From Escherichia coli (lineage in GTDB: Bacteria > Pseudomonadota > Gammaproteobacteria > Enterobacterales > Enterobacteriaceae): a stretch of 64,000 nucleotides of DNA. The stretch lies in the NCBI RefSeq assembly GCF_030384885.1, contig NZ_CP128613.1; one strand, written 5' to 3'. Numbering within the stretch: position 1 is the first letter of the stretch; each line of letters starts with the position of its first letter. A program made the position numbers. Shown here piece after piece: positions 18,001 to 24,000 of this stretch.

Positions 18001-21000
18001 GATCGCCGGGGTGCTGCCGGACGGTAAAGCCGAAGCGATTAAACGTCTGCAAAGTGAAGGACGTCAGGTGGCAATGGTGGGCGACGGCATTAACGACGCG
18101 CCAGCGCTGGCCCAGGCGGATGTCGGTATTGCGATGGGGGGCGGCAGCGATGTTGCCATTGAAACCGCGGCGATTACCCTGATGCGCCATAGCCTGATGG
18201 GTGTTGCGGATGCGCTCGCTATTTCCCGCGCAACGCTGCGCAACATGAAGCAGAACCTGCTCGGCGCGTTTATCTACAACAGCATTGGTATTCCGGTCGC
18301 CGCCGGTATTTTGTGGCCGTTCACTGGAACACTGCTTAACCCGGTGGTTGCCGGAGCGGCAATGGCGCTCTCGTCGATCACCGTAGTGAGTAACGCCAAC
18401 CGCTTGCTGCGGTTTAAACCGAAGGAATAAGTATGTCATTGCGGATGCGCTGCTTTAGGGTGGCGCATCTGGCATCGACGCATGCCTGCCGGATGCGGCA
18501 TAAACGCCTTATCCGGCCTACGATTCAGGCACAGGGTTGTAGGCCTGATAAGACGCGTAAGCGTCGCATCAGGCAATGGTGCTCGGATGCCGGATGCGGC
18601 GTGAACGCCTTATCCGGCATCCGAGATGAAGCGATTTTTTGGCCTTACGCGACCTTTTTGCACGTTTTTCCCGGCGTGCCAAATATTTAATCCGTCCCAA
18701 CTCCATTTGCGCCATCCCTCCCCGCGCGCTAGCATGATATTTCACAAAGGGAGGTCGTATGGATCTGTTGTACCGGGTAAAAACGCTTTGGGCCGCGCTG
18801 CGCGGCAATCATTACACCTGGCCTGCTATCGATATCTCTCTTCCCGGCAATCGCCATTTTCATCTGATTGGCAGTATTCATATGGGCAGCCACGATATGG
18901 CTCCCCTGCCCACCCGTTTGCTCAAAAAGCTCAAAAACGCCGATGCGCTGATCGTCGAGGCGGATGTTTCCACCAGCGATACGCCTTTTGCCAATTTGCC
19001 TGCCTGCGAGGCGCTGGAAGAGCGCATTAGCGAGGAGCAATTACAAAATCTGCAAAACATAAGCCAGGAGATGGGTATTTCTCCGTCGCTCTTTTCCACC
19101 CAACCACTGTGGCAAATCGCGATGGTTCTTCAGGCAACGCAGGCGCAAAAACTGGGGCTGCGGGCAGAATATGGTATCGATTACCAGCTATTGCAGGTGG
19201 CGAAGCAACAACATAAACCCGTGATTGAACTGGAAGGGGCAGAAAACCAGATTGCCATGTTGCTCCAGCTCCCTGACAAAGGACTGGCGCTGCTGGACGA
19301 TACGCTGACCCACTGGCACACCAACGCTCGTTTGCTGCAACAAATGATGAGTTGGTGGCTGAATGCACCACCGCAAAATAATGAAATAACGCTGCCGAAT
19401 ACGTTCAGCCAATCGCTGTACGATGTGCTGATGCATCAGCGAAATCTCGCCTGGCGGGATAAACTGCATGCTATGCCGCCGGGGCGCTATGTGGTCGCGG
19501 TCGGAGCTTTACATCTGTATGGAGAAGGGAATTTGCCGCAGATGTTGCGCTAAAAAAATGGCCAATATCGCTATTGGCCCGTCAAAGAGGAATTTCATTT
19601 TTTTATTATTATGCCGTCACTTTAAGCGACGGTGTAACTCGATTGTCGCTCAATCTCACCATCCTGCCAATACTCTTAGGCAAGATGACTCTTTTTTTTG
19701 GACCGCCATCAGGCGTATGCTTGCTTCGTTTTTTTGTTTAAGGCAGGAAAATTATCATGACACCCGCAGTTAAATTACTCGAAAAAAACAAGATTTCGTT
19801 TCAAATCCATACCTACGAGCACGATCCGGCTGAAACCAATTTTGGCGATGAAGTCGTCAAAAAATTAGGTTTGAATCCGGATCAGGTCTACAAAACGCTG
19901 CTGGTCGCAGTGAATGGTGATATGAAACATCTGGCAGTGGCCGTTACGCCGGTCGCCGGTCAACTGGATCTTAAAAAAGTAGCAAAAGCGCTGGGTGCCA
20001 AGAAAGTTGAGATGGCCGATCCGATGGTCGCGCAGCGTTCGACGGGATATCTGGTTGGGGGGATTAGCCCACTGGGGCAGAAAAAACGCCTGCCGACGAT
20101 TATCGACGCCCCCGCGCAAGAGTTTGCCACTATTTTTGTTTCTGGCGGCAAGCGCGGGCTGGACATCGAACTGGCGGCAAGCGACCTGGCGAAGATCCTC
20201 GATGCCAAATTTGCTGATATCGCTCGTCGCGATTAAGTGATGCACACGGAAGATGAGATGTGGAAAGGATTACAGAGACATTAAGTATCGCTTGTGCAGA
20301 TGAGATACCGGATATCGCCTTACTTCGGCAAACATCGAGAGAGAAGGTATTACATCTGCATTTTGCCAGCGAAGCAGAGAGGTATCGTGAGGAATTCGGG
20401 CTGGTGCTGAAAGCACAGCTCGATGAATTTGTTGTTGGCATGCATTCTGCCGACCCGGTTATCAGGATCGCCAGATTAATATCGCTTGAAGAGATTAACC
20501 GCCATCAGGATTTTTTCGAACACTGCGCGAAAGAATATCGTAAGCTGGCGACAGAGCTTATATTTGCATTGGCTGAACAACTGAATGTTGAGATGGCGGA
20601 AAATAACCCGCTAGTTACCTTTGCCCCCTTCAAATGCAACCGTAAGCGAAAAGGCAAAATGGGAAAGTGGCAGTATTGTTTTCACGGTTTTCATTGTGCA
20701 TTTGAGAATAAAAAAACAGAGCAAAATATTGAAGTTCCCCTCGCCTACGGCTTTGATTTCGGCGATCTGGACCCGTATTTTTTTTCCGGATTTATCAAAT
20801 CGACCCCCGACTGGCAGCCTCTGCCAGTGGCTATTTACGATGATTACCACGACGGCAGCAGGATCATTCAACAACTGCTGGCGCTGGGAAAGTTAGAAAA
20901 AATCCCTTCACCGATCCCACAATACACGGGGGTTGCTGCGGTAGATCGGTCCAATGTCGACATCGCAAATTTTCGCTCAACACTGGAGAGTCGCCTGCAC

Positions 21001-24000
21001 CGATGTAAATTACGCTGGCTTTTGAAGCGTGTAAAAAATTCACAAAGGAGCGAAAGATGAAATTTGACCATCTTGTTGATGTTAGCTTCCACAATTTTGT
21101 CTTTAACGGAAAATTCGATTTTGTCGAACCGGGGCAAACAATGGCATGGCTGGAACAAAACTTTGTTGAGCCGGACTCTAAAAATGATATGGGAAATGGT
21201 TTTTATATCTGGCTATTTGGCAATGTTGAGTTTCATTTCGAAAGCAACAAGCTATATATGATTTGGTGCGATTATTTGAGCCAAATCCATTTGGGCAAAG
21301 CGATCCGATTTGATAAAGGAATATTGAATAACGTCGCTGAGTTGAACGTTACGCGTGTATTTAACATGCTTGTTAACGAAGGCGCTGATCTGCAAATCCG
21401 CCGTCAATCGCTCAGGCGTGACACTTTGGTTTGAAGCAGATGAAGAACAGTCTGGTGAACCGCAGAATTATATGCTGATGGCATTTGGTTTGACACATCG
21501 CGATTACGATGCAAGATTTCAATATTCATAAATGGCGGCGTCATATCATGACGCCGCGACAGGGTTCATTACTGCCAGCTCACCTCACCTTTCGGTTCAT
21601 AGACACTCACATCCAGCGGCGAGTTTTTCTGGATATACGCTTTCAGCACTTCAGCATCAATAAAGCCGGTATTCACATAGCCCGGTTTGTTATCCAGACG
21701 CGGATAGCCATCACCGCCAGTGGCATTGAAGTTTAATGTCGCCATACGGTAAGTTTTCGCCGGATCGACCGGTTCGCCTTTGATTTTCAGGTCGTTCAGT
21801 TTGCCGTCTTTCGCCACAAAGCTAACGTTGGCAAATTGCGGATAGGCACCAGAATCAGGCTTCATTTGTGCGACGGCGGTCAGGTAATCAATCACCTCTT
21901 TACCGGTCATGTCGGCATACACCACCACATTGCCGAATGGCTGCACTTTCAGCACATTTTTATAGCTGATATCACCTGCTTCGATAGAATCACGAATTCC
22001 GCCTCCGCTCATCACCGCAAAGTCGGCACCAGTGCGATCCATTTGTGCTGCCAGAATCAACCGCCCCATATTGGTCTGTACAAAACGCACTTTGCTGCGG
22101 TCGCCTTCCAGACGACCATTGGTTTCGCCTATTTTCACTTCCAGCTGCGCTTTGCCTTTGTTCTGGAACGGTGATAACAGCGAAATCATTTGCTGGTTTT
22201 CGGCGATTTCAGGGGTGTAAAGCACACGCTCGCTTTTCCCGTCTTCCCAGGTCACTTTCTTCTTCAGGTTTACCGGAATCAACTGGTAGTTGACCATTTT
22301 CATTTCGCCGTTGCGAAACTCAAAGTCGGCCCGACCTACGTACTTGCCCCACTCATGCGCCTGTACAATCCAGATGCCATTTTGTTGATCCGGTTTGCAT
22401 GGCGTACCAGGAACGTAATCGACCTGTTTTTTATTTTCTGCCGCCATACAGACTGGATCTTGCGAGTGACCTCCGACGATCATCGCCAGCGATCCGGCAG
22501 GCAGCGCGCGTGCCATTTCCACATCGCCCGCTGCGTTAGAGCCGTGCTCACCATTGTCGTAATGCCCCATATGGGTCGCCGCGATAATAATGTCTGGCTT
22601 TTCTGTCTGTTGCAGCTCCTGAATCACCAGCTTCGCTTCATCGGCGGGTTTACGGAACTCAATATCGGTGAAGTTTTCTGGGTTGCCTAACTTCGCTGTG
22701 TCATCCGTCGTCAGACCAATAACGGCAATTTTCAGATCCTGACGCTTAAACAGCGCCCATGGTTTAAACAGGCGCTCACCAGTGCTTTTTTGGTAGATAT
22801 TGGCGGAAAGCAACGGGAACTTAGCCCACTTTTCCTGCTGGCGTAATACGGTGAGCGGGTTATCAAATTCATGATTACCGATTGCCATCGCATCATAGCC
22901 CACCAGATTCATACCGCGAAAATCAGGTTCGGCATCCTGTAAGTCGGACTCGGGCACGCCAGTATTAATGTCGCCACCGGAAAGTAGCAGCACGCTACCA
23001 CCTTCAGCCGCAACCTCTTTGCGAATACCGTCCACCAGCGTTTTTTGCGCCGCAAGACCATATTCGCCATATTCATTACGCCAGAAATGACCATGATGAT
23101 CATTGGTATGCAGAACTGTAATTTTGTAGGTTTTATCCTGCTCATAAGCCAGAGCAGTTTCACTCGCCAGTGTAAATGTGGTTAACAGTGCTAACGCCAC
23201 GCCCCGCTGCAATAATTTCATACTTCTCTCCCTGATCAGATTTCAACGTGTTGAAAAATAGTATGACGCGACATCATAGACAAGTCTGCGTCCGGTGAAG
23301 ATAAATCTGCATCCAGATTAGAAATTCTGTATTCAGCGTTGAGACTTCCTTCAGGCGGCGCATACAGGTATGTTAGTCGGGTAATAATCACAAATAAGAT
23401 CATTCTTTACATCGCAACCCTGAAAAAGTGACTTTCCTATGGCAATGAGTGAACAAACCCAGCCAGTGGCTGGCGCTGCTGCGTCAACGACTAAGGCCCG
23501 AACATCGTTTGGTATTTTAGGTGCTATCAGCCTCTCACATCTGCTGAACGACATGATCCAATCGCTGATTCTGGCGATTTATCCCCTGCTTCAGTCAGAA
23601 TTTTCTCTGACATTTATGCAAATTGGCATGATAACCCTCACCTTCCAGCTCGCCTCTTCACTATTGCAACCTGTGGTCGGCTACTGGACGGATAAACATC
23701 CGATGCCGTGGTCGTTGCCGATTGGCATGTGCTTTACCTTGAGCGGTCTGGTGCTGCTGGCGCTGGCGGGCAGTTTTGGCGCAGTTCTGCTGGCGGCGGC
23801 GTTGGTCGGCACTGGTTCGTCGGTCTTTCATCCGGAATCCTCACGCGTGGCCCGAATGGCGTCTGGTGGCCGTCATGGCCTGGCGCAATCTATCTTTCAG
23901 GTCGGCGGCAACTTTGGCAGTTCCCTGGGGCCCTTGCTGGCAGCGGTGATTATCGCGCCTTATGGCAAAGGCAACGTGGCGTGGTTTGTACTTGCAGCAC

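Follow-up and report, generated by a model that had tools for sequence, protein, structure and literature searches.

A two-gene accessory islet between ybaK and ushA in Escherichia coli, encoding a DUF6896 protein and a protein of predicted BLIP-like fold

The ybaK-ushA insert and its two genes

Within a 64,000-nucleotide stretch of Escherichia coli DNA (contig NZ_CP128613.1 of assembly GCF_030384885.1, hereafter the window), we analyzed the interval between ybaK and ushA, where a genuine accessory islet of two genes, here called ORF1 and ORF2 after their open reading frames (ORFs), occupies a single position, always at the 3' end of ybaK. The gene order in the window is copA-ybaP-(sroB/ChiX)-ybaK-insert-ushA(-)-fsr (Table 1), and the gap between ybaK and ushA measures 1332 bp, versus 36 bp in MG1655, where the spacer is a hairpin. 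An original prediction, made from the sequence alone, had put these gaps at about 1.33 kb and about 50 bp; the first figure holds, and the second is somewhat too large. The two ORFs constitute the whole gene content of the insert, which carries no mobility gene or recombinase. A check for flanking repeats revealed neither terminal repeats nor a target-site duplication at the insert ends and thus ruled out insertion sequence (IS)-like or cassette-like ends; a transposase gene, a further mark of a mobile element, was likewise absent from the insert (no tRNA scan was made). GC content is 46.1% in ORF1 and 39.9% in ORF2 versus 50-53% in the flanking genes ybaP, ybaK, and ushA, in agreement with the predicted AT-richness of the second ORF relative to its core-gene flanks.

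ORF1 has the predicted length and GTG start, but this start lies 23 nt past the ybaK stop and not directly behind it, and the GTG at 20237 sits in a different frame. A longer ORF1 is not possible because an in-frame TGA occupies 20254-20256, and the next in-frame methionine is residue 61, within a conserved domain. This start assignment is further strengthened by 33 homologue N-termini that align to the GTG and by an identical start in RefSeq.

ORF2 is preceded by a Shine-Dalgarno sequence (AAGGAG, 7 nt upstream of the ATG). The predicted 125-aa ORF with its ATGA overlap exists as sequence, but it is a strain-private truncation and not the native gene. By alignment with ST131 strain EC958, the window copy carries a 29-bp deletion between 10-bp direct repeats (CGTCAATCGC), which shifts the frame past residue 118 of a native protein of 167 aa, such that the first 118 residues match the native protein bar a few substitutions and are followed by 7 out-of-frame residues; the lost C-terminal part persists as a remnant within an ORF at 21355-21531. 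Among the 774 complete E. coli genomes that carry the two genes, an ungapped match to the deletion stretch was found in 2013C-4282 alone, a genome 100% identical to the window. The nine next-best carriers listed show the form with the 29 bp present, aligned in two pieces (298 versus 269 bp), and all 773 carriers other than 2013C-4282, these nine included, fall in the lower identity band and have undeleted ORF2 DNA. The seven further genome contexts examined that encode the exact ORF1 protein likewise each have an ORF2 of 166 or 167 aa. In the structure model, the second repeat loses about 3.5 of its four strands to the truncation; native ORF2 would be inactivated in this strain by the private deletion, and the half-protein may keep residual function.

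No promoter-like or terminator-like site was found in the spacer between ybaK and ORF1, which makes read-through from ybaK into the cassette probable. On this basis, ORF1 and ORF2 would probably be transcribed from upstream, with translation of ORF2 presumably coupled to that of ORF1 via the ATGA overlap. At the other end, a GC-rich hairpin (−18.4 kcal/mol with z −4.1 on the plus strand, −17.9 kcal/mol on the minus strand) is probably a bidirectional terminator that stands in for the K-12 hairpin.

Table 1. Coordinates of the ybaK-ushA interval, in positions of the window
Feature	Position	Strand	Remark
ybaK	19757-20236	+	
Accessory insert, in place of the 36-bp K-12 spacer including its hairpin	20237-21568	+	GC 44.3%
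ORF1, 266 aa	20260-21060	+	GTG start
ORF2, truncated allele, 125 aa	21057-21434	+	ATGA overlap with ORF1
Junction of 29-bp deletion, one CGTCAATCGC copy kept	21401-21411	+	break about 21401/21402
Out-of-frame remnant of the last ~40 native ORF2 residues (...GVTLWFEADEEQ...AFGLTHRDYDARFQYS, then stop)	21412-21531	+	
10-bp GC-rich hairpin between native ORF2 stop and ushA stop	21535-21557	.	
ushA	21569-23221	-	

Distribution and probable recent spread in Escherichia

Of 5426 complete E. coli genomes, 774 (14%) carry the cassette, always in single copy and on the chromosome, while 4647 have the empty, contiguous K-12-type junction. The site is therefore essentially bi-allelic, and the interval is variable rather than conserved in all E. 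coli, as had been anticipated. Carriers include EC958 (ST131) and NRG 857C (O83:H1), and non-carriers include K-12, O157:H7, and CFT073. Both genes are annotated in 30 of 30 sampled E. coli genomes. The site is likewise occupied in E. whittamii, and ORF1 of the window has a 100% identical counterpart in E. fergusonii, protein B7LJF0; further genomes with the identical ORF1 allele and the same layout are probably E. fergusonii as well. Among the Enterobacterales genome representatives, the ORF1 family occurs only in Escherichia and Leminorella.

Comparison of synonymous divergence (dS) between the cassette and its flanks points to a recent arrival. Among the window, EC958, and locus L089 (probably E. 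fergusonii), dS was 0.06-0.20 for the flanking genes ybaP, ybaK, and ushA, 0-0.012 for ORF1, and 0-0.047 for ORF2; against E. whittamii, it was 0.376 for ybaK, 0.055 for ORF1, and 0.110 for ORF2. A tract of ~2.2 kb, roughly 20000-22250, is near-identical between the window and L089 and extends from the cassette into both neighbors, taking in the 3'-terminal ~240 bp of ybaK and ~700 bp of ushA; outside it, the alignment is a mosaic with 2-11 mismatches per 100 bp. In the aligned sequences, this tract looks like a recombination import. Because the cassette dS lies several-fold to more than ten-fold below that of the flanks, recent spread by homologous recombination via ybaK and ushA is indicated, and the cassette would have moved between Escherichia lineages through these flanking core genes. 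The cassette marks a clean presence/absence polymorphism in E. coli and would have moved recently between Escherichia species.

The ratio of nonsynonymous to synonymous divergence (dN/dS) against E. whittamii was about 0.45 for ORF1 and 0.14 for ORF2; both genes are therefore constrained, ORF2 more strongly. Together with the homologues found for each, this purifying selection upholds the view that both ORFs are real genes. Complete E. coli chromosomes also carry shortened ORF1 alleles (199-224 aa; P0014, P0027, and P0046), and since the 200-aa P0014 represents 89 member sequences, ORF1 is also being lost in some lineages.

Two unrelated families and their neighborhoods

The original prediction had recognized neither protein. 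RefSeq annotates both, as a "DUF6896 domain-containing protein" and a "hypothetical protein," and ORF1 residues 87-215 match the Pfam family DUF6896 (PF21837; E 7e-14, model positions 2-119/128), whose domain all full-length ORF1 homologues carry and which has no known function. Many DUF6896 members consist of the ~150-aa core only, whereas in the ~260-aa subfamily that includes ORF1, the core is preceded by an IF3-C-like alpha/beta domain (about residues 1-80 of ORF1) and followed by a basic tail. Full-length relatives of about 260 aa, 38-59% identical to ORF1, are found mainly in Bacteroidota (Flavobacterium, Chryseobacterium, Sphingobacterium, Mucilaginibacter, Chitinophaga, and also Saprospiraceae), with few in Enterobacterales (Leminorella, Escherichia) and remoter forms in Planctomycetota and marine Gammaproteobacteria. 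The core motif reads W137-x4-H142-G-x-H-C...Q155..E158...LDPYF, of which W137, H142, G143, Q155, and the LDPYF segment are invariant, as is D171; H145, C146, and E158 are not constant among distant members. No known enzyme family matched ORF1, in line with the expectation that it would not prove to be a known enzyme. The AlphaFold2 (AF2) model has a predicted local distance difference test score (pLDDT) of 88.4; a search of AFDB50 with it returned DUF6896 or uncharacterized proteins only, and no solved-structure relative of the DUF6896 core was found. ORF1 ends in a basic amphipathic C-terminus, and the tails of almost all its homologues are likewise net-basic, with many aromatic and hydrophobic residues (LRWLLKRVK, FAGLLKRLPKS, WKRWFKRK); the likeness of these tails to membrane-targeting amphipathic helices suggests attachment to the inner membrane.

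Extended forms of the domain were also observed. A 421-aa protein from a Bacteroidetes metagenome-assembled genome (L075, 8007-9272) joins the DUF6896 core to a C-terminal region of ~270 aa, which matches nothing in Pfam or NCBIfam and contains an R-x4-H motif (RCNITH) that, by eye, may be reminiscent of HEPN. Three metagenome proteins (P0258, P0260, and P0262) resemble DUF6896 proteins of the planctomycete type and have C-terminal extensions of 130-200 aa; two of the three end in ...HVRGCWVVD(V/L)(L/C)LGK, and the extensions have no family match.

ORF2 founds a real, uncatalogued sequence family of about 190 clusters. An exhaustive HMMER search returned 191 cluster representatives, most of them about 150-180 aa long and matched over their full length. 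The 167-aa protein had no match in Pfam, NCBIfam, PADLOC, PHROGs, or PDB sequences, and the 125-aa form likewise none in Pfam; no Pfam domain was found in 51 aligned family members, and PDB sequence searches with single sequences and profiles gave only a chance ankyrin match. One protein (P0075) fuses a DUF4240 domain to the ORF2 domain, and tandem paralogues occur at a few loci (L114/L115 and L158). The parts added in P0075, in the Planctomycetes DUF6896 extensions, and in L075 yielded no informative domain.

The AF2 model of native ORF2 (pLDDT 94.7) consists of two repeats, each of one helix and four antiparallel strands, and its predicted fold is a tandem BLIP/BamE-like one that matches the BLIP-like group in structure. 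At the level of sequence profiles, none of the hidden Markov models (HMMs) of the BLIP-like/yfeY-like families of Pfam clan PepSY, CL0320 (BLIP, DUF4309 YjgB, DUF1131 YfeY, SmpA_OmlA BamE, and OsmE), matched ORF2 or any one of 50 family relatives. The known members of these families are secreted proteins or lipoproteins, unlike the ORF2 family, which lacks a hydrophobic signal-like N-terminus both in native ORF2 and across the alignment inspected by eye; native ORF2 is therefore probably cytoplasmic. BLIP-like/yfeY-like families form a group within clan PepSY, and several of them are enzyme inhibitors (PMC11836899). The BLIP/BamE-like fold is also found in the type VI secretion system (T6SS) immunity proteins TsiN and BtiO, of which TsiN is the cytoplasmic immunity protein of the T6SS DNase effector TseN (PDB 9J9W; PMC12574953). 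TsiN shares the fold with the ORF2 model at 8% identity and with no HMM-level similarity; as a further difference from TsiN, no effector, VgrG, PAAR, or chaperone gene adjoins ORF2 or its relatives. Overall, the BLIP-like fold serves stoichiometric protein inhibition but also proteins that are not inhibitors.

The relation between the two genes was examined in 70 genome loci of the ORF1 family (69 of them outside Escherichia) and 69 metagenome loci of the ORF2 family. An ORF2-family HMM found no member at any of the 69 ORF1-family loci outside Escherichia (0/69), and DUF6896 HMMs found none at the ORF2-family loci (0/69). The closest non-Escherichia relative of ORF1 (Leminorella, 52% identical) has no ORF2 beside it, and that of ORF2 (65% identical) lies on a 4-kb contig that lacks ORF1. 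The two profiles are not homologous to each other (hhalign probability 0.2%). The insert is thus a small islet of two unrelated genes that are independent elsewhere and probably do not form a functionally obligate pair.

In Leminorella, Flavobacterium, Chryseobacterium, and Chitinophaga, the ORF1-family gene stands alone among unrelated genes without a partner gene, and across the 70 loci, neighbor families are common only within a genus. Fourteen Chryseobacterium loci have the ORF1 relative at the same position, with a GNAT acetyltransferase and a phosphodiesterase; these shared neighbors reflect vertical synteny. Where their neighbors could be named, ORF2 relatives adjoin small uncharacterized proteins or housekeeping genes, often 5-26 bp downstream of the latter: ubiA and, by eye, PrkA-, RecQ-, and GalT-like ORFs, with one relative beside a Tn3-type transposase (also by eye). 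Large or tightly adjacent ORFs upstream were read by eye in about a dozen of the 69 loci, and the rest were clustered. The large upstream ORFs were considered as candidate toxins and rejected, being the PrkA-, RecQ-, and GalT-like ORFs, the Tn3-type transposase, and similar. In this reading, no homologue was found immediately 3' of an Rhs, CdiA, or T6SS/T7SS effector gene, the placement of an orphan polymorphic-toxin immunity gene, and a Pfam scan of the small neighbors gave only DUF4288 and DUF2262, which are uninformative.

Neither protein has a recognizable toxic domain or a match to any toxin, defense, or phage family in NCBIfam, PADLOC, or PHROGs, and no family in PADLOC-DB v2 matched either protein at E<=1. 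The viral contigs of IMG/VR contained no relatives of either family and the phage records searched with ORF2 gave no match, by which a phage origin was rejected. Matches of both families to plasmids are distant only and lie on Cytophagales megaplasmids. A literature search found no paper on DUF6896 or the RefSeq accessions and nothing relevant on the ybaK/ushA locus.

Some of these neighborhoods merit separate mention. On a group of related metagenome contigs with a GC of about 0.56 (L104-L113), an ORF2-family gene and three small ORFs (one of 164 aa that has an ATGA overlap, one of 113 aa, and one for a DUF4288 protein) lie between galT- and galK-like ORFs recognized by eye; L110 (8001-10004) is an example, and the gene content of this islet differs among contigs. 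In Fulvitalea axinellae (L086 and L087), plasmid pFA3 carries a distant ORF2 relative and plasmid pFA10 a distant ORF1 relative, the latter near umuDC and about 3.4 kb from a type I restriction-modification (R-M) system; another distant ORF1 relative lies on plasmid p1 of Flammeovirga kamogawensis (L088). These three plasmids are non-mobilizable, the relatives sit among small hypothetical genes, and the neighbors gave no informative NCBIfam match.

Functional readings of the islet and its surroundings

Considering the predicted fold and the distribution of the two families, we favor, at a probability of roughly 40%, an interpretation of native ORF2 as an orphan inhibitor or immunity-type protein, with ORF1 acting at the membrane and independently of it. 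Judging from the model, native ORF2 would bind a protein target stoichiometrically, for example to protect the cell, as an orphan immunity-type protein, from a toxin or enzyme that comes in, and ORF1 would work without ORF2, attached to the inner membrane by its C-terminal tail. The immunity-like small second gene of the original prediction thus survives in the predicted fold of ORF2, which immunity and inhibitor proteins use, and not in its pairing with ORF1. Orphan immunity genes and acquired interbacterial defense clusters, which Ross et al. 2019 reportedly described (cf. orphan cdiI and rhsI genes), offer a close comparison: like the cassette, such genes are small, accessory, and of atypical GC, lack a cognate toxin, are horizontally exchanged, and have tandem paralogues (here at few loci). 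Unlike such clusters, the cassette has no mobile-element machinery, no relative was seen beside a toxin, and the ORF1 family is syntenic in Chryseobacterium.

If the orphan inhibitor or immunity reading of ORF2 is true, its family of about 190 clusters would stand as a new sequence group of cytoplasmic BLIP-like inhibitors and would point to a yet unfound toxin met by gut Escherichia. DUF6896 is a sizeable family, mostly of Bacteroidota, and its E. coli member offers a tractable system for the function of the family. Already known is the annotation of the pair in RefSeq as hypothetical genes, and the ORF2 copy in the window is broken.

Several observations weigh against this interpretation. 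Since ORF1 and ORF2 are always found together in Escherichia and coupled in translation, a lineage-specific functional link may exist between them, and we infer the ybaK-driven transcription from sequence. No recognizable toxin was found beside any ORF2-family member (large or tightly adjacent upstream ORFs read in about a dozen of the 69 loci), ORF2 has no Pfam, NCBIfam, or PDB sequence match, and the fixed position of the ORF1 family in Chryseobacterium looks more like that of a cellular function than of a conflict gene.

Under the main rival, the two are ordinary accessory cellular proteins without a conflict role, e.g., ORF1 a membrane-associated enzyme or adaptor and ORF2 a binder or regulator of an endogenous target. 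Members of both families are usually surrounded by housekeeping genes or placed at the 3' end of one (ubiA, ubiB/yaeQ, and the GalT-, RecQ-, and PrkA-like ORFs seen by eye) and usually not beside mobile or toxin genes; ORF1-family proteins of different phyla remain 40-50% identical and share a strongly conserved motif, synteny is stable inside genera, and ORF2 is under purifying selection. We nevertheless consider this explanation somewhat doubtful, given the patchy occurrence in 14% of E. coli and in only Escherichia and Leminorella among the Enterobacterales representatives, the recent lateral exchange, the frequent truncated ORF1 alleles in E. coli, and the ORF1 dN/dS of about 0.45, which together suggest dispensable, niche-dependent genes.

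That one or both genes form a new small anti-phage or anti-plasmid defense system seems improbable. The cassette is accessory, low in GC, and recently swapped between lineages, a hotspot nearby holds a higB/higA pair or an IS110 element in alternation with repetitive extragenic palindromic (REP) elements, and one DUF6896 relative is located near the type I R-M system and umuDC on the Fulvitalea plasmid, all of which would suit a defense function. Against this stand the absent PADLOC match, the lack of enrichment of known defense genes across 139 related loci, the absence of any ATPase, nuclease, TIR, or Sir2-type effector domain, and the vertical inheritance of the ORF1 family at one syntenic position in Chryseobacterium.

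It is likewise quite unlikely that the islet is a functionless remnant, a decaying piece of an older island kept by hitch-hiking. Such decay could account for the truncated ORF2 of the window and the truncated ORF1 alleles P0014, P0046, and P0027, but both genes are annotated in all 30 sampled genomes, ORF2 DNA is undeleted in 773 of 774 carriers, dN/dS is below 1 for both genes, and both belong to widespread families with confident predicted folds. Still less probable, in our assessment, is an unrecognized Escherichia conflict module in which a membrane-tethered DUF6896 sensor or effector would be checked or aided by the cytoplasmic tandem BLIP-like protein, and by which lineages such as ST131 and E. 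fergusonii would be protected from a phage or an interbacterial toxin.

The toxin-immunity or two-gene defense cassette of the original prediction fared worst, as the families are never neighbors outside Escherichia and match no toxin, defense, or phage family. A toxin-immunity or toxin-antitoxin (TA) pair, in which ORF1 would be a toxic effector neutralized by the coupled ORF2, fits two small ATGA-overlapping genes of low GC at a variable site, the inhibitor- or immunity-like predicted fold of ORF2, invariant His, Gln, Asp, and Trp residues of ORF1 that could form an active site, and a pair never split in the 774 E. coli carriers; it is very unlikely because of the 0/69 co-occurrence in both directions (ORF1 relatives are alone in 69/69 non-Escherichia loci, and ORF2 relatives have no ORF1 partner in 69/69), the want of toxin neighbors, and an ORF1 that is intact where ORF2 is broken, to which the variation of H145, C146, and E158 in distant members and the absence of a secretion or delivery domain in ORF1 can be added. 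The pattern of partner loss looked for in an immunity pair was not found: in this one genome, ORF2 is frameshifted, yet ORF1 is 100% nucleotide-identical to alleles paired with an intact ORF2. Type II TA modules, such as the higB-like/ybaQ pair located 1.5 kb away in other strains, likewise consist of two short overlapping genes at a variable spot; unlike them, the cassette matches neither toxin nor antitoxin families and lacks a DNA-binding antitoxin domain, its partners are not conserved together, and ORF2 is broken here while ORF1 is kept.

The surroundings of the cassette showed two further features. The small RNA sroB/ChiX lies at 19552-19635 on the minus strand between ybaP and ybaK as in K-12 and is ordinary. 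A second site of variation, at a distance of 1.5 kb from the cassette, is the copA-ybaP spacer (18431-18758): in the window, it contains REP-type sequence alone (Rfam naRNA4 at 18542-18619), while the same spacer holds a HigB-like toxin with ybaQ/HigA in EC958 and the L089-L091 genomes, ybaQ in K-12, and an IS110-family transposase in L092/L094.

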